From Candidatus Latescibacterota bacterium (GTDB lineage Bacteria; Latescibacterota; UBA2968; UBA8231), in assembly GCA_965200315.1 (NCBI GenBank), contig OZ241362.1:2112001-2176000 (forward strand): 64,000 bases of DNA, given 5' to 3'. Positions 47,200 through 53,322 of this stretch are shown here, piece after piece. A program made the position numbers and the translations under genes. Each line of letters starts with the position of its first letter. Position 1 is the first letter of the stretch. The notes beneath the pieces are model-generated. The model did no database searches, was not told the DNA's origin, and was given only the letters and a program-made list of their open reading frames with translations.

Positions 47200-47550
47200 A
47201 TGGTCCAAGCCTTGGAATGGCGCTACCACCGCCCCGGCTGAACGAGCTGCAAGCGCGCACAAGAGTTTCTTGTGCAAAACAGCATTGCCGACGGCATCGT
47301 GCAGAGTGCGACCAAAGAACCGGTCGCAGGTACGGCCGCCCTCACTCTGCTCGAGGACGCGACCGAGCTGTTCGTCGCCCAAGGGCAGCAAATCCTCCGC
47401 TTCGACTTGGTGGCGCAACGGCCGGCGGACGAGGAATTGCTCCCGCTTCTGTTGGGGCGTTCTGGCAAGCTGCGGGCACCCGCGTTCCGCTGCGGTACGC
47501 GCCTGATCGTCGGCTATAATCAGGCGCTGCTGCCGACGGCGTTGAGCTGA
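47200..47550 (+). CDS. ArsC-like thioredoxin-fold selenoprotein (UxxC), UGA at 47239-47241
   Basis: 'YHRPG-U-TSC', 'LLGRSGKLRAP', 'LIVGYN'; hairpin gcacaaga-gtt-tcttgtgc 15 nt after UGA. Confidence 0.85.
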
Positions 47551-47729: not shown

Positions 47730-49199
47730 TCACTGATTCGAGGAATGCGGATAGACCCGCTCCCACCCCGCCGCACCGAACACCTTATCGGCCCACAGAG
47801 GGCCACTTGCAGAGGCGTCCACCAAATTGTAGTCGTGCGAGGATTGCACGGAGCGCATGACCTCGCGCCAAAGTGCAGCGTCTAAGTGCCGGTATTCGGC
47901 CGCGTGCGACGCGGATTCGGCGAGATTGTGCTGTTCTTGAGGATCTTCCTGCAAATCGAAAAGCCCGGTCGCGCCGTTGCCGTACTTCACTAGCTTGTGC
48001 CGCCCGTCGTAGGCCATCCAGCCAGATTGCAAGCCGCCGATGAGCATGTCGCGCGGTGTATCGCCGGCCAAGCCCAAGCCGGGCAAGGGCCTAGCGTCCA
48101 TGTACTCCGGTACACCGTGCCCAGATGCGGCTAACAGGGTAGCGGTGACGTCCGTGAGACAAACGAGATCGTCGCGCACCGCGCCGACGGCACCGCCCGG
48201 CTGGCGCACTAGCATGGGCACGTGGCAGCTACCCTCGTAGAAGTTGCCCTTGGCGTTTACGCCGTGATCTCCGACCAAGTCGCCGTGGTCGGAGGCGAAG
48301 ATGACGATGGTGTTGTCGAGACGGCCGCTTTCCTCCAAGGCCGCGAGGATTTGGCCGACCTCGTGGTCTATCTGCAAGATGAGCGCGGAGTAGTGGGCGC
48401 GCACCTTGCGCTTCTGCTCCTCGGTGTAGGGACCTTCGGCCTCTGGAGTCCATATCGGCACGCCCGGCCGAGGCCGAGGATGGATGCCCTCGCGGACATC
48501 CCGGTGAATGGGATCGCCGGGGGCAGGATCGGGAATGTTATCGACATCTACTTTAGCCAGAAATTCAGGCGTGGGATCGTAGGGGTCGTGGGGGCCGGGG
48601 AAGCCGACCATGCAGGCGAAGGGCCGCTCGTCGTCGTACTCGCGGATGAAGCGCGCAGCCTCCTCGCCGACGAAGTAATCCCAGTAGCAATCCCAAGGCA
48701 AAAGCGACACGCAGGCACCGCGATTTTCGTCGTATCCTTCGTGCTCCTTGCCCATGTACTTGCGGTGGCCGCGCTGTTGCAGATAGTGCCAGTAATCATC
48801 TTGGATGTTGACCCACACCTTGTCTTCGCAGGCGATGCGATGTTGGAAGCCAAAAGAGGCTTCCCACGGGTAGAAGTGCATCTTGCCGATGGCCGAGGTG
48901 AGGTAGCCGTGGTCGGTCAACATCTCCGCCCAAGTGCGGATGCCACACGCAGCGTGGTCCGGTCGCAGGTGGTTGCCGTTGGTCAGCACGTGATTGCGCC
49001 AAGCATTGAGGCCAGTCAGCAGCGAACAACGCGCCGGTACGCAGACCGGATGCAGGCTGTAGGCGCGGTCGTAGCGGATTCCCTCGGCGGCAATGCGGTC
49101 GATGTGGGGCGTGGAAATGTGGGGAGCACCGTAACAACTGAGAAAGTCGTGGCGCATCTGGTCGGGCATGATGAACAACAAATTGGGTCGGTCGCTCAT
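47730..49199 (-). CDS. Formylglycine-dependent sulfatase
   Basis: 'PNLLFIMPDQ', CxPxR 'CVPAR', 'GKMH', 'PHDPY', 'SDHGD'. Confidence 0.93.
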   Translation of the reverse strand: MSDRPNLLFIMPDQMRHDFLSCYGAPHISTPHIDRIAAEGIRYDRAYSLHPVCVPARCSLLTGLNAWRNHVLTNGNHLRPDHAACGIRTWAEMLTDHGYLTSAIGKMHFYPWEASFGFQHRIACEDKVWVNIQDDYWHYLQQRGHRKYMGKEHEGYDENRGACVSLLPWDCYWDYFVGEEAARFIREYDDERPFACMVGFPGPHDPYDPTPEFLAKVDVDNIPDPAPGDPIHRDVREGIHPRPRPGVPIWTPEAEGPYTEEQKRKVRAHYSALILQIDHEVGQILAALEESGRLDNTIVIFASDHGDLVGDHGVNAKGNFYEGSCHVPMLVRQPGGAVGAVRDDLVCLTDVTATLLAASGHGVPEYMDARPLPGLGLAGDTPRDMLIGGLQSGWMAYDGRHKLVKYGNGATGLFDLQEDPQEQHNLAESASHAAEYRHLDAALWREVMRSVQSSHDYNLVDASASGPLWADKVFGAAGWERVYPHSSNQ

Positions 49200-49315
49200 G
49201 GTTCTATTCCATTCGTTAGGGTGTTTTCGCACTCGTCCGCGCTTTGGCCCAATCGTCGGCGCATCCTTGGTCAGCTACTAATTGCTAGGGGACGGCCTTC
49301 GTTGGTGCGCTCATA

Positions 49316-50710
49316 CTAATTCTCTTGGCTACGAGCGGCAAGGACCAGCTCCTTGAACTGATCTCCGCGTGCAGCGTAACTGGGAAACTGATCGAAGCTA
49401 GCGCAGGCCGGCGAAAGCAGCACCACGTCGCCAGTCTGCGCTAGGCGACGAGCAGCGTCTAGGGCTTCAGGTAGGCCGGGGCAGCGGTGGATAATCCCAC
49501 CAGCACCCGCCTGCCGTACAGCAGCGGCAATGCGCCGGGCCTCTTGACCGATGAGCAGCACGGCGCGGACATTGGCCGCGGCAATAGCAGTGCCCAAGGC
49601 ACTGAAATCGGCCCCTTTTGAAGCGCCGCCAGCGATCAGCAGCAGGGGCGCGTCAAAGGCCCGGATGGCAGCACAGCTAGCATCGACGGTCGTGGCCAGT
49701 GAGTCGTTGTAATAAGTAACGCCGTCGCACTCGGCAACGTATTCGAGGCGGTGGGGAAGGCCCGCAAAGGAGCGAATGGCCGCGGCAAAATGGGTCGGCG
49801 GCGCACCAAAGGCCAAAGCACCAGCTACGGCAGCGGCGACATTGCTCCAATTGTGTTGTCCCCGCAGAGGAATGTCGTCCACCGGACAAATAGCGGTCGG
49901 TTGCGCCCCTGGGCAGCAGGCCCACAACTGGCCAGCGGCAATCCACGCACCCGGAGCACTCGGGGTGGTTGTGCTAAAGGCCCACAGGGTAGCTAAACTC
50001 TCATCGGCAAAGGTTCGAGCCGTGGGACAGTCCCGATTGACGACGAGGATATCGCCGGGCGTTTGGTAGCGACAGATGGGTTTTTTAGCAGCGACGTACT
50101 CGGCGCGGTCAGCGTGATAGTCGAGGTGGTCCTCGGTGACGGAAAGAACCACGGCGATGTGCGGGCTTTGGTCGAGGTCTTGCAATTGGAAGCTGGACAG
50201 CTCTAGAACGACTCGGTCGGTCGGCTGCAACTCGTCAAGGAATTCGAGCGGCGGCCGGCCGATGTTGCCGCCGCTAAACACCCGTACCGACGGATCGGTT
50301 GCCAGCAAGGCATGCAGCAGCGCGGTCGTAGTGCCCTTGCCCTTGGTGCCGGTAATGCCGAGCACGGGCGCGGGGCATAGCTGTAAAAAGAGGCGCGTCT
50401 GGCTCGATACTTCGACGCCGCAACGGCGCGCCGCGCACAGGCGCGGGTCCAGCATCGGCAAGCCCGGCGTGCGGAACAGCAAGTCGAAGTCGGTCAGGTC
50501 ATCGAGGTAGCGGTCGCCGATGCGCCACCGTCGTACGCCCTCCACCGGCGTGGCCGGGGCACGGACATCGCACACGGCAAAGGGAATCTGGCGCACGTGG
50601 AGAAAGCGAGCCAGCGCGCGGTTTTCTATGCCGAGGCCAAGGAGGGCAATGCGCCGCTGGTGCAGAGCCGCGCTTGACTCTTTGGGGCCGGAGGATTTTT
50701 TTAGCGCCAT
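49316..50710 (-). CDS. murD: UDP-N-acetylmuramoyl-L-alanine--D-glutamate ligase
   Basis: 'GITGTKGK', 'ELSSFQL', 'DHLDYH', 'NDS.AT', 'SPACASFDQF'. Confidence 0.96.
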   Translation of the reverse strand: MALKKSSGPKESSAALHQRRIALLGLGIENRALARFLHVRQIPFAVCDVRAPATPVEGVRRWRIGDRYLDDLTDFDLLFRTPGLPMLDPRLCAARRCGVEVSSQTRLFLQLCPAPVLGITGTKGKGTTTALLHALLATDPSVRVFSGGNIGRPPLEFLDELQPTDRVVLELSSFQLQDLDQSPHIAVVLSVTEDHLDYHADRAEYVAAKKPICRYQTPGDILVVNRDCPTARTFADESLATLWAFSTTTPSAPGAWIAAGQLWACCPGAQPTAICPVDDIPLRGQHNWSNVAAAVAGALAFGAPPTHFAAAIRSFAGLPHRLEYVAECDGVTYYNDSLATTVDASCAAIRAFDAPLLLIAGGASKGADFSALGTAIAAANVRAVLLIGQEARRIAAAVRQAGAGGIIHRCPGLPEALDAARRLAQTGDVVLLSPACASFDQFPSYAARGDQFKELVLAARSQEN

Positions 50711-50758: not shown

Positions 50759-51136
50759 GTGGCTGTAACAATTATGCGTACGGTGCGGCCTAGTCCGCAA
50801 TGGCAAGACAGCTTGATCCGGCTAGAGAGCGGCCAGCGGGTCGTTATCGACGCCGAGGAAACTTGGTCGCCGGACATGCGCAACCAAATCGCCTGGTGCG
50901 GCGCCGATGGCTTGTACAACTTGCCGGCAGAATCGGGCTACCTACTGCCTGGAGCCAATGTCGGTACCCTCGTGGCGCGCATTGGCGACAGCGGGCCAAT
51001 CTTTGCCGTGGGCAGCCGCTGCGACTTTATCGCCGATCGCGCAGGCATCCTGTATTTGGCCATGAACGAAAACCCGGATTTCAACAACCAAGCCGGCAAA
51101 ATCGTCGCTCAAATCATCGTCTTCAGCCAACCATGA
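50759..51136 (+). CDS. Small beta-rich protein, LecA/PA-IL-like
   Basis: 'WQDS.I.L..GQ', 'G.LVARIG', 'G.LYLAMNE'; no signal peptide. Confidence 0.6.
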   Translation: MAVTIMRTVRPSPQWQDSLIRLESGQRVVIDAEETWSPDMRNQIAWCGADGLYNLPAESGYLLPGANVGTLVARIGDSGPIFAVGSRCDFIADRAGILYLAMNENPDFNNQAGKIVAQIIVFSQP

Positions 51137-52170
51137 GCCTCGCCGACAGTGCGGCGACCGCAGCCTATGCGCGCGCAGGTCATCCGCCCATCCGCGCGTT
51201 CGCTCCACTCGCCGAAGGGGTCTGGCGCATCGAAGACGCAGACGGCCGCAAGGTCGTGGTCAAACATCAACTCTTCGGGAGACTGACGCAGGGCACGGCT
51301 TACGACCTGTTGGAGGTCGAGCGCGACGTGCTCGGCTTCTTGCACACAGCGGGTTGTCCGGTGCCGGCCGTGCTGGGTATCGATAAGGAGGCCCACTGCA
51401 TCTTCTTGCAATGGGTCGGCGATCGCACCCTCGACGACGCCATTCAGGACGGGGACCGTGCGACGACGATTCAGGCCATACGCGGGCTGTGCGCCATTGA
51501 GAGAGCGTGCGCCCAACGCGCCGACCAGCTAAAGCCGAGGGTAGTGCCAAGCGCCAACCGCACAGCCCTCAACGTCGCCTGGGACGAGGCCGGAGCGCGA
51601 GCGCATACTGGCATCGAGCAGCTAGGCAGCCGTCTCCAGCGGCCGCTGGACGCTGGGGTCCAGCCGCTGCTCAAAGCCATGCACGATTGGCTGGCAGCAC
51701 GGCCAGCTTCGCTGGGCAGCGTAGATTACAACGCGTACAACGCAGTGGTCGAGCCGGGGGGAACGCACGTTTATTTTCTCGAATTTGCCAAAATTGGCTG
51801 GGACTGGACGGAACGGCGCTTGACTCAGTATACTTCTAGTATGGGTAGCGGGCGACAGGATGGGCGCATGCGCTCGCTGCTGGACGCATCCGCAGCGCGT
51901 TTATACGCCGAGGCGTCCGGGCGCAGCGACGGCGCGCGGGCGCTCGATTATCACCGCATCTTTTTTCTTTTAAACAGCGCAGCCCTGTTGTGCGCGGCCC
52001 TCGACGGCGAGCCGCACGCGCTGGCCCTGCGCCAACGCTGGAAAAGGCCCTATGCGAGGCTTAGGCAATGCGCGGCCATGCTGGCCGAGGGCCTGAGCAC
52101 AGACCCAAGCGCGGCCGAGTTCAGAAGCCGGTTGCAATTTTGTATATCACCACGCGGAGGTACCCTATGA
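51133..52170 (+). CDS. APH/choline-kinase-like phosphotransferase with variant motifs
   Basis: 'VVVK', 'E..VL.FL...GCPVP', 'VDYNAYN', 'FLEFAK'; ATGA overlaps at both ends. Confidence 0.65.
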   Translation: MSLADSAATAAYARAGHPPIRAFAPLAEGVWRIEDADGRKVVVKHQLFGRLTQGTAYDLLEVERDVLGFLHTAGCPVPAVLGIDKEAHCIFLQWVGDRTLDDAIQDGDRATTIQAIRGLCAIERACAQRADQLKPRVVPSANRTALNVAWDEAGARAHTGIEQLGSRLQRPLDAGVQPLLKAMHDWLAARPASLGSVDYNAYNAVVEPGGTHVYFLEFAKIGWDWTERRLTQYTSSMGSGRQDGRMRSLLDASAARLYAEASGRSDGARALDYHRIFFLLNSAALLCAALDGEPHALALRQRWKRPYARLRQCAAMLAEGLSTDPSAAEFRSRLQFCISPRGGTL

Positions 52171-52433
52171 GCGAGTGGAATACTCTCGATTTTAAGCCCC
52201 GGGCCCGAGGAATGATCATCGGCGATATTCCCTGGCTGGCGCGGATAGCCGACAAGGCGCGGGCGCGCCAACAGCACCGCATCGGCGACTACGTATTTCC
52301 CTGACCGGCCGACAAGCGCTTCCTGGAGGAAGTGGAGCTAACAGCCGAAGCATTCGAGGAGATGGTGGCCTCGTCCGCAGACGACGATGCCCTGATCGAA
52401 AAGATGAAAGCGCACTTGGACAGAAAGCACTAG
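52167..52433 (+). CDS. DUF5069-like putative selenoprotein, UGA at 52302-52304
   Basis: SD GGAGG; 'WLARIADKARA…IGDYVFP-U-PADKRFL'; frame continues 42 codons to TAG 1 nt before the next ATG; hairpin cgcttcc-tgga-ggaagtg 12 nt after UGA. Confidence 0.8.
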
Positions 52434-52434
52434 C

Positions 52435-53322
52435 ATGAGCACTTCAGCGCAAACCGTGCGCGCGCCAAGGCGGAGAGTCCGGGAGATGGAGGTGGAGGTC
52501 GTCCACGTGCGCCGCGACACCCCAGACACCACCACGCTCTTTATGTCGACTGGCGACGAGCCAATCGAATACCAAGCCGGCCACTTCTGCACCATTGATC
52601 CGCATCAGTTCGGTGAGCTAGAGCACTTCACCGCCTATTTAGAAGATCAAAAGGGGCAGCGGGAAAAGCCGCGGGCTTATTCCATGGCTTCTGCACCGCA
52701 CGAAGAGCACCTCGCCATCACGATCAAAGAAGAGCGCTACGAGAGCGGCGAGACGCCGTACCCGCCGCTATTGTCGCCGCTCTTGACTTACTACATCCAA
52801 GAGGGCAGGCGGCTGGTCATCAGCGGTTTTACCGGGGCGTACACCTTTCCCGCCGATGTCTGCGAGCGCACTGATCACATTATCCACTTGTGCGCCGGCA
52901 GCGGCATCGTGCCCAACCGGAGCCTGATCAAGGAAAGCCTGCACCGCGGCGACCCGCTTAGGCACACCTTGCTGTTTAGCAACAAGACGCGCGGCGACGT
53001 CATTTACTTCGAGGAATTCGAGGCATTGCGGGCGCAGTACCCCGACAAACTCAAAGTCATCCACTGCATCACCCGCGAGGACCCAAGCGGCATCCGCGGG
53101 GCCCACGAGGGGCGCATCTCTGGGGAACTCTTGTGCCAAGTCGCGCCCGATCCCGCCAAGGTGATGGCTTATAGCTGCGGCCCGGGCATCACGCCCTACG
53201 AGCGCCGGGCGGCTCGGGCCAAGGGAGAGACTCCCGAGCCGCGCTTCGTCGAAAACATGGTCGCGCTCTTGCAGGAGCATGGGCTGGACAAAAAGCAGAT
53301 CCGGCAGGAGAGCTGGGGCTGA
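52435..53322 (+). CDS. Ferredoxin-NADP reductase-like FAD/NAD(P)-binding oxidoreductase
   Basis: 'RAYSMAS', 'AGSGIVP', 'SCGP', C-terminal 'ESWG'. Confidence 0.85.
   Translation: MSTSAQTVRAPRRRVREMEVEVVHVRRDTPDTTTLFMSTGDEPIEYQAGHFCTIDPHQFGELEHFTAYLEDQKGQREKPRAYSMASAPHEEHLAITIKEERYESGETPYPPLLSPLLTYYIQEGRRLVISGFTGAYTFPADVCERTDHIIHLCAGSGIVPNRSLIKESLHRGDPLRHTLLFSNKTRGDVIYFEEFEALRAQYPDKLKVIHCITREDPSGIRGAHEGRISGELLCQVAPDPAKVMAYSCGPGITPYERRAARAKGETPEPRFVENMVALLQEHGLDKKQIRQESWG

Follow-up and report, generated by a model that had tools for sequence, protein, structure and literature searches.

An in-frame UGA codon in short-form DUF5069 genes of Latescibacterota and Poribacteria points to a selenoprotein family

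The gene considered here is located in a 64,000-nucleotide stretch (the window) of the genome of a Candidatus Latescibacterota bacterium (assembly GCA_965200315.1, contig OZ241362.1, positions 2,112,001 to 2,176,000 of the forward strand) and contains an internal UGA codon, which is very probably read as selenocysteine (Sec, U). Its predicted coding sequence (52167..52433, plus strand; positions are those of the window) is preceded by the Shine-Dalgarno sequence GGAGG (52156..52160, plus strand), which can be read directly from the sequence 6 nt ahead of the ATG. The start codon at 52167 overlaps the TGA stop codon of the upstream gene as ATGA (52167-52170). The UGA represents codon 46 (52302..52304, plus strand), stands in the context 'GDYVFP-U-PADKRFL' and aligns with a Cys of homologous proteins. 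It is followed by 42 sense codons and the stop codon TAG (52431-52433); after a gap of 1 nt, the ATG of the next gene is found at 52435. A sequence-only reading of the window had already proposed a selenoprotein at this place, and the coordinates, the Shine-Dalgarno sequence, the overlap at the ATG, the position of the UGA and the 42 downstream codons were all found as placed there.

With U46, the translation comprises 88 residues. The protein was assigned to the Pfam family DUF5069 (PF16798; profile length 133 positions, gathering cut-off 27 bits) with a score of 50.5 bits (E 3.1e-13), and residues 11-86 correspond to profile positions 4-79. This match runs across the UGA, as was to be expected if the sequence-only reading was right. 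Since it covers approximately the first 80 of the 133 domain positions, the protein is regarded as a short form of the family. Beside the translation and the Pfam match, this assignment is based on the orthologs.

Orthologs were searched with the read-through protein in 61 related genomes, in all six frames and with stops counted. An ortholog was present in 54 genomes, in 51 cases with exactly one internal TGA and in 3 cases without TGA. In these loci, the TGA never departs from one codon position (...G-[DE]-Y-x-[YF]-[PF]-*-...); the three loci without TGA encode Cys there. When 168 genomes of the phylum were scanned, 119 contained an ortholog (104 with TGA, 15 without). All of these lie within four families of one class; ten other families, represented by 36 genomes, had none. 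A further set, obtained by a pattern scan with one genome per species, consists of the top 80 of 178 relatives (the best 80 loci). According to their titles, these belong mostly to Candidatus Latescibacterota, some are metagenome-assembled genomes (MAGs) labelled Gemmatimonadota, 17 are Poribacteria, and Planctomycetota, Opitutales and Handelsmanbacteria are represented by one each. The codon is TGA in 67 of them, including the 17 Poribacteria, TGC in 9 and TGT in 4. Throughout the sets of 54, 80 and 119 orthologs, the codon is kept as TGA or TGC/TGT with a conserved downstream frame, and identities decrease to 43-44% without frameshifts or additional stops.

The sequence-only reading had placed the conserved Cys of DUF5069 proteins at the position of the UGA. 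Among 37 full-length short-form proteins from a collection of 5.8 billion metagenome proteins, 36 indeed possess Cys at this site, as does the protein of known structure 3omd (see below). The remaining one possesses Trp (W) and has the type of sequence whose codon at this site is TGA in the Poribacteria loci. Apart from this protein, the non-TGA relatives among the metagenome homologs and the best 80 loci possess Cys, and never Gly. In a tree of 94 distinct proteins, calculated with the trait column masked, approximately four changes are needed to explain the distribution of Sec and Cys, and two of them are forced by well-supported branches.

The part of the protein behind the UGA is conserved as well. 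In an alignment of 77 sequences of both Sec and Cys forms, residues D49, L53, F63 and D73 are invariant in 77/77, and D49 is located only three codons past the UGA. For 29 distinct sequences at the genus level, the ratio of nonsynonymous to synonymous changes (pN/pS) is 0.10 in codons 1-45 (synonymous changes, pS, 0.32) and 0.26 in codons 47-88 (pS 0.29); judged by these ratios, the codons past the UGA are under purifying selection. A conserved in-frame start codon past the TGA was not found among these relatives; for example, the proteins of genus g8 have no Met after position 46. Because of the invariant residues, the pN/pS ratio and the missing downstream start, a stop codon followed by a second open reading frame (ORF), or a pseudogene, does not fit.

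In public protein collections, these genes are present in altered forms. Among the best 150 representatives, 12 Sec forms end exactly before the UGA (P0125, P0145, P0154, P0157, P0158, P0163, P0166, P0174, P0195, P0199, P0206 and P0214), and two records (P0037 and P0121) carry W at the UGA site. The latter are most simply explained as automatic translations under another genetic code, in which TGA encodes W. As the records are either fragments cut at the UGA or carry W, annotation pipelines currently miss the Sec forms.

A hairpin begins 12 nt past the UGA (52317..52334, plus strand) and, based on folding and comparison, is a candidate bacterial selenocysteine insertion sequence (bSECIS). Its stem of 7 bp is formed by positions 52317-52323 and 52328-52334 and encloses the loop UGGA (52324-52327), exactly as the sequence-only reading had described it; the hairpin alone has a folding energy of -8.0 kcal/mol. 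In the accessible text of PMC13188914, the bSECIS model comprises a loop of 3-9 nt with a G among its two initial positions, an upper stem of 4-16 bp, a spacing of 16-37 nt between UGA and loop and a minimum free energy of ≤ -7.5 kcal/mol. The window hairpin agrees with the model as given there: it has a 4-nt loop with a G in the second position and another G behind it and a stem of 7 bp, and with 19 nt from UGA to loop and -8.0 kcal/mol it lies within both the spacing and the energy limit. A scan of positions 52100-52500 against Rfam gave no family at E ≤ 1, and Rfam may hold no model for such an element.

To compare the hairpin among relatives, both locus sets were pooled (133 loci), and counts refer to distinct sequences (71 Sec and 15 Cys sequences), because some genomes occur in both sets. 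At least five contiguous pairs in the same register were found in 70/71 Sec sequences (seven pairs in 44, six in 25 and five in 1) and in 0/15 Cys sequences, which reach a maximum of four contiguous pairs. In the remaining Sec sequence, six of the seven pairs are formed and the closing pair is open. The core TTCCTGGAGGAA occurs in 64/71 Sec sequences vs 1/15 Cys sequences. In the alignment of the 71 Sec sequences, 94.4% of the cells are paired. At pair 18-31, 41 sequences have C-G, the other 30 have G-C, and none is unpaired; pair 17-32 occurs as AU, GU, UA or GC and is paired in 70/71. The covariation score was not matched by any of 500 shuffles, and registers slid along the alignment scored far lower.

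The hairpin is embedded in codons 51-56, which encode R-F-L-E-E-V in the window and R/H/K-F-L-E-E-V/L/A/H across the relatives. In these codons pS is 0.063 in comparison to 0.35 in codons 57-88, corresponding to approximately five-fold fewer synonymous changes. Here, the Cys forms are free not only at synonymous sites but also in the residues themselves (FLRE, FLQK, FLEQ or FLDE). Over the 45 nt past the UGA, the median folding energies (Sec -14.6 kcal/mol, Cys -17.3 kcal/mol) do not separate the two forms; only the local hairpin does.

The genome from which the window originates (5.36 Mb, a single contig) contains the sel genes on which the sequence-only reading depends. A tRNA-Sec (selC) is present, SelA was matched with 478 bits, and the wing domain of SelB was found within a frame of 637 codons. 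The gene selD is located outside the window (C1:2481770-2482693, plus strand) and contains an in-frame TGA of its own ('...VACGGU-ASK'); therefore, the selenophosphate synthetase of this organism is itself, by prediction, a selenoprotein. The second gene with UGA and hairpin that had been claimed for the window also exists. It encodes an ArsC-family selenoprotein (47200-47550, plus strand; NCBIfam NF041106, 108 bits at a cut-off of 85), lies 5 kb upstream of the DUF5069 gene and possesses a UGA at codon 14 (47239-47241, 'RPGUTSCK') with a hairpin of 8 bp and the loop GUU 15 nt past the UGA. With translation Table 11, only the part of this gene behind the UGA would be called.

SelA was also detected in 5/5 further genomes with the Sec form that were tested, one of them from Poribacteria, and in 7/10 tested genomes with the Cys form. 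Three genomes with the Cys form yielded no SelA match at E ≤ 1e-30 (G036 and G129, both of genus g7, and G155; 86-93% complete). It may be that the Sec trait was lost in genus g7. As a cause of all Cys forms, such a loss was rejected, since 7/10 of these genomes have SelA.

The gene at 52167-52433 is hence very probably a genuine, expressed-type selenoprotein gene with Sec at codon 46. SelB and Sec-tRNA(Sec) would decode the UGA at 52302-52304 by means of the hairpin with the UGGA loop 12 nt downstream, as the comparison among relatives supports. Several points weigh against this interpretation. The case for Sec is comparative throughout. The fold of 70 nt does not differ from shuffled sequences (z = 0.08), a lax scan of the window yielded 32 cases of an in-frame TGA with a hairpin, and the 18-nt core alone reaches -7.5 kcal/mol in only 31/71 Sec hairpins. 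Because the hairpin taken alone is no better than chance, its significance comes only from the relatives; these sequences are kin rather than independent, and the covarying changes trace to a few deep lineages. Moreover, part of the conservation of the hairpin could be a constraint on the protein, because it coincides with the conserved F-L-E-E.

Decoding of the UGA by a near-cognate or suppressor tRNA, which would insert Trp, Cys or Gly while the hairpin stimulates read-through generically, is highly unlikely. The W in records P0037 and P0121 would agree with this, as would the circumstance that Sec at residue 46 is a prediction from sequence comparison. The W records, however, are most simply attributed to translation under another code, and the non-TGA relatives have Cys at the site rather than Trp or Gly. 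Furthermore, this genome uses TGA as an ordinary stop codon, and it possesses a complete Sec machinery as well as two further Sec genes of curated families. The hairpin also fits the bSECIS model in its spacing and loop G, as far as that model is given in the accessible text of PMC13188914.

The TGA could also be a true stop codon behind a peptide of 45 residues, with the downstream part as a separate small ORF or as an RNA or regulatory element. Under Table 11 the ORF indeed ends at 52304, public gene callers record fragments of 45-90 amino acids, 12 of the best 150 ending exactly before the TGA, and the upstream gene itself ends with TGA. The probability of this explanation is nevertheless very slight: D49 is invariant in 77/77 only three codons past the TGA, no conserved in-frame start follows, the downstream frame is kept with a pN/pS of 0.26, and the matches to Pfam and 3omd continue through the stop. 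In addition, the TGC/TGT relatives encode the same protein of 88-91 amino acids without interruption. The presence of only one in-frame stop in a family member that is intact apart from it might suggest a pseudogene, in which a nonsense mutation has interrupted DUF5069. This reading is in effect refuted by comparison, as the TGA occurs at the same codon in 104/119 orthologs of four families of one class and in Poribacteria, at identities down to 43-44% without frameshifts or further stops.

For the selenoprotein, a structural model was calculated with AF2 from the 77 aligned sequences (predicted local distance difference test, pLDDT, 84; predicted template modelling score, pTM, 0.69). It consists of a beta-hairpin (residues 17-22) and the helices 24-35, 47-55, 60-69 and 73-87. 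U46 directly precedes helix 47-55 and follows a conserved Pro in the motif P-U-P-x-D. A Foldseek search against the Protein Data Bank (PDB) gave 3omd (template modelling score, TM, 0.78, normalised to the query; root-mean-square deviation 1.1 A; 73 columns; 32% identity). At E < 1, no further PDB match was obtained, neither a functional analogue nor a thioredoxin-like protein. 3omd, the only solved DUF5069 member, was released in 2010 as an 'uncharacterized protein' of 145 residues, from Leptospirillum rubarum by entry title, and its Cys aligns by sequence with U46. It shares the fold and the motif G-[DE]-Y-x-[YF]-x-C-P-x-D with the window protein, which differs from it by Sec in place of Cys and by the absence of the C-terminal third of the 145-residue chain.

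The charged residues R12, R14, R26, K30, D29 and D49 are invariant. A second invariant Cys was not found in the 77 sequences, and a CxxC or UxxC motif is not present. A Cys near position 70, which is common in the Cys forms, was considered as a resolving residue and rejected, because it is not invariant and does not occur in the window protein. The sequence-only reading had described the motif G(D/E)Y..xCP.D as typical of DUF5069 proteins. This holds for 79 of the best 150 library representatives and for 3omd, but not for the whole family. A protein with three tandem DUF5069 domains, encoded outside the window (C1:4133672-4135129, minus strand) and conserved across the class (similar loci L036-L044), has G-x-D-S-x-x-D in place of the Cys motif. 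Since the motif is replaced, this triple-domain subfamily cannot share a chemistry based on Cys or Sec.

The genes on both sides of the DUF5069 gene were also analysed. Upstream, a gene for a phosphotransferase of 345 amino acids resembling aminoglycoside phosphotransferases (APH) and protein kinases is located (51133..52170, plus strand). The sequence-only reading had placed its start at 50800. This was not borne out, as the ORF of 456 codons (50800-52170) is over-called: relatives have in-frame stops in the first 111 codons, and because of these stops and of public gene calls of 345 amino acids the start is set at 51133. The AF2 model of the protein has a pLDDT of 92.3, and Foldseek matched 114 PDB chains at E ≤ 0.001. 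The matches listed are all of the APH type and comprise corramycin, aminoglycoside and macrolide phosphotransferases, homoserine, choline and methylthioribose kinases and PsiK. The residues K44, E63, D198, N203, E217 and D224 are invariant, and we take this pattern of Lys, Glu, Asp...Asn and Glu/Asp to be the catalytic set of kinases. The protein has no Pfam match even at E ≤ 1 and no NCBIfam match; for lack of a Pfam match, its assignment rests on the fold, the motifs and a language-model look-alike. In 58 of the best 80 loci, the DUF5069 gene follows this gene directly; the ends of the two genes overlap or abut even at 33-45% identity, whether the form is Sec or Cys. In most Latescibacterota-type lineages, the DUF5069 start codon lies across the stop of the kinase-like gene. 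A stop was seen in the automatically chosen frame of the kinase-like gene that accompanies the Cys form in locus L148 (upstream of 3001; record title Opitutales MAG). Further upstream, an arylsulfatase-family gene (47730-49232, minus strand) and murD (49316-50710, minus strand) are located on the opposite strand, and murD stands divergently beside the kinase-like gene in most related loci.

Downstream, a flavoprotein reductase of 295 amino acids similar to FNR is encoded (52435..53322, plus strand). It was recognized by Pfam NAD_binding_1 and by the NCBIfam models for PaaE, Hcr and FNR, which match in part, contains the motifs RxYS, GSGIVP and CGP and has no ferredoxin domain. This gene directly follows the DUF5069 gene in 40 of the best 80 loci, again irrespective of Sec or Cys form. 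In one study, four RNA libraries yielded contigs that cover the three genes without interruption and with the TGA unchanged; since DNA carry-over is possible and the contigs give no transcript ends, strand or level, they indicate at most transcription. Genes for GT2, ArgC and TatD were considered as further parts of a system and dropped, as only some of the loci have them downstream; moreover, ArgC matches TIGR01851 with 340 bits as an ordinary equivalog.

Concerning the function, U46 might serve in a redox or nucleophilic role as a single selenol, for which the chances appear about even. This is suggested by the usual meaning of Sec/Cys pairs, by the sequence and by the model. The selenol at the N-terminus of the helix would be the nucleophilic or redox centre and would act on, or accept electrons for, an anionic substrate or partner. 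A single-selenol centre and an anionic partner are proposed because a second Cys or CxxC motif is missing, U46 stands before helix 47-55 and the charged residues are invariant. As no second Cys is conserved, the intermediate would have to be resolved by a partner from outside.

As working partners of the DUF5069 selenoprotein, the kinase-like and the FNR-like protein are the likeliest candidates, but they may be considered only tentatively and are indicated by gene order alone. In the lineages with all three genes, the kinase could provide or retain a phosphorylated substrate, and the flavoreductase could recycle the oxidised selenol with NAD(P)H. That kinase, selenoprotein and flavoreductase form an undescribed three-part system for phospho-activated, selenium-dependent reduction is unlikely. 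In such a system, the kinase would phosphorylate a small molecule, the selenol of U46 would attack or reduce the activated substrate, aided perhaps by the conserved Arg and Lys residues around U46 (a guess from the sequence), and NAD(P)H would regenerate the selenol via the flavoprotein; the reduction would then take place on a fold for which no catalytic relative is known.

Several observations speak against these functional proposals. A known redox fold or motif was not found in the window protein, and DUF5069 subfamilies exist in which the Cys is not conserved. The 17 Poribacteria loci, 5 Latescibacterota loci and families f2-f4 lack both neighbours; genes for an ABC transporter, RsmD-like, GlyS, HDOD, UPF0182, PheA or QueG proteins are located there instead. 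Finally, DUF5069 domains are fused to a cupin (3/10 proteins scanned), a methyltransferase, the C-terminal domain of a CO-dehydrogenase flavoprotein, DUF2249 or a dienelactone hydrolase (DLH), and such heterogeneous fusions point to no single chemistry.

A Sec form of DUF5069 had been regarded as undescribed in the sequence-only reading, and this agrees with the sources consulted. The literature searched as full text contained no paper naming DUF5069 or PF16798, and among the matches listed for selenoproteins of Latescibacteria or Poribacteria nothing was relevant. The read-through protein gave no NCBIfam family (release 20.0) at E ≤ 0.01 and no selenoprotein model. The inventory of 2026 comprises 119 selenoprotein families and subfamilies in its Table 1 (PMC13188914), and PF16798 is absent from this table; examples named in the accessible part of the inventory are the DUF523, DUF166, DUF1573 and DUF3179 selenoproteins. 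Computational searches turn up new families of bacterial selenoproteins several at a time, for example nine in the available text of PMC12013277. The 'Hypothetical protein GOS_A' (PMC2398784) was reported with 2 Sec and 155 Cys sequences, and the accessible text of PMC9312934 gives neither a domain nor a motif or accession for it. It can be compared by this description only, and the missing domain assignment in 2022 argues mildly against its identity with DUF5069.

If the Sec form is confirmed, a selenoprotein family outside the thioredoxin fold would be at hand. In one class of Latescibacterota, the Sec form is dominant over the Cys form (104/119 orthologs), and it also occurs in Poribacteria; both are candidate phyla without cultured model organisms. 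Few signs available from sequence alone indicate a catalytic or redox residue, and a Sec/Cys pair is one of them. For DUF5069, for which a crystal structure has been available since 2010, the pair would be the first functional handle, as it singles out residue 46 together with two candidate partners. At present, public sets contain these genes either truncated at the UGA or with W in its place.

One of the known systems close to it is the NF041106 protein of the same window, for which we assume the ArsC/Spx thioredoxin-like fold. Like the DUF5069 protein, it is small, contains a single Sec, is encoded in the same genome and has a hairpin soon after the UGA. In contrast to the latter, it belongs to a known and curated family and possesses a UxxC motif, and there is no relation between the two in sequence or fold. 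The window hairpin is unlike the SECIS of fdhF in its sequence. With the fdhF-type bSECIS of E. coli, as represented in the legend to Fig. 2 of PMC13188914, it shares the position as a stem-loop within the ORF right after the UGA, but it is very short (6-7 bp, 4-nt loop) and has no bulge. According to the accessible text of the same article, most characterised selenoproteins have a UxxC/CxxU motif and a thioredoxin-like fold; neither the CxxC/UxxC motif nor the fold of such oxidoreductases was found in the window protein. The predicted Sec/Cys-pair families described there differ in that DUF5069 is not listed among them, has no UxxC/CxxU motif and no thioredoxin-like fold. As far as that text goes, they are recognised by the same signs as DUF5069: TGA aligns with Cys, further Sec users possess orthologs with TGA, a bSECIS comes right behind the UGA, and entries in public databases stop at the UGA. 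By this comparison, the short form of DUF5069 is almost certainly a previously unlisted selenoprotein family of a known type, that is, a Sec/Cys pair with a SECIS within the ORF.

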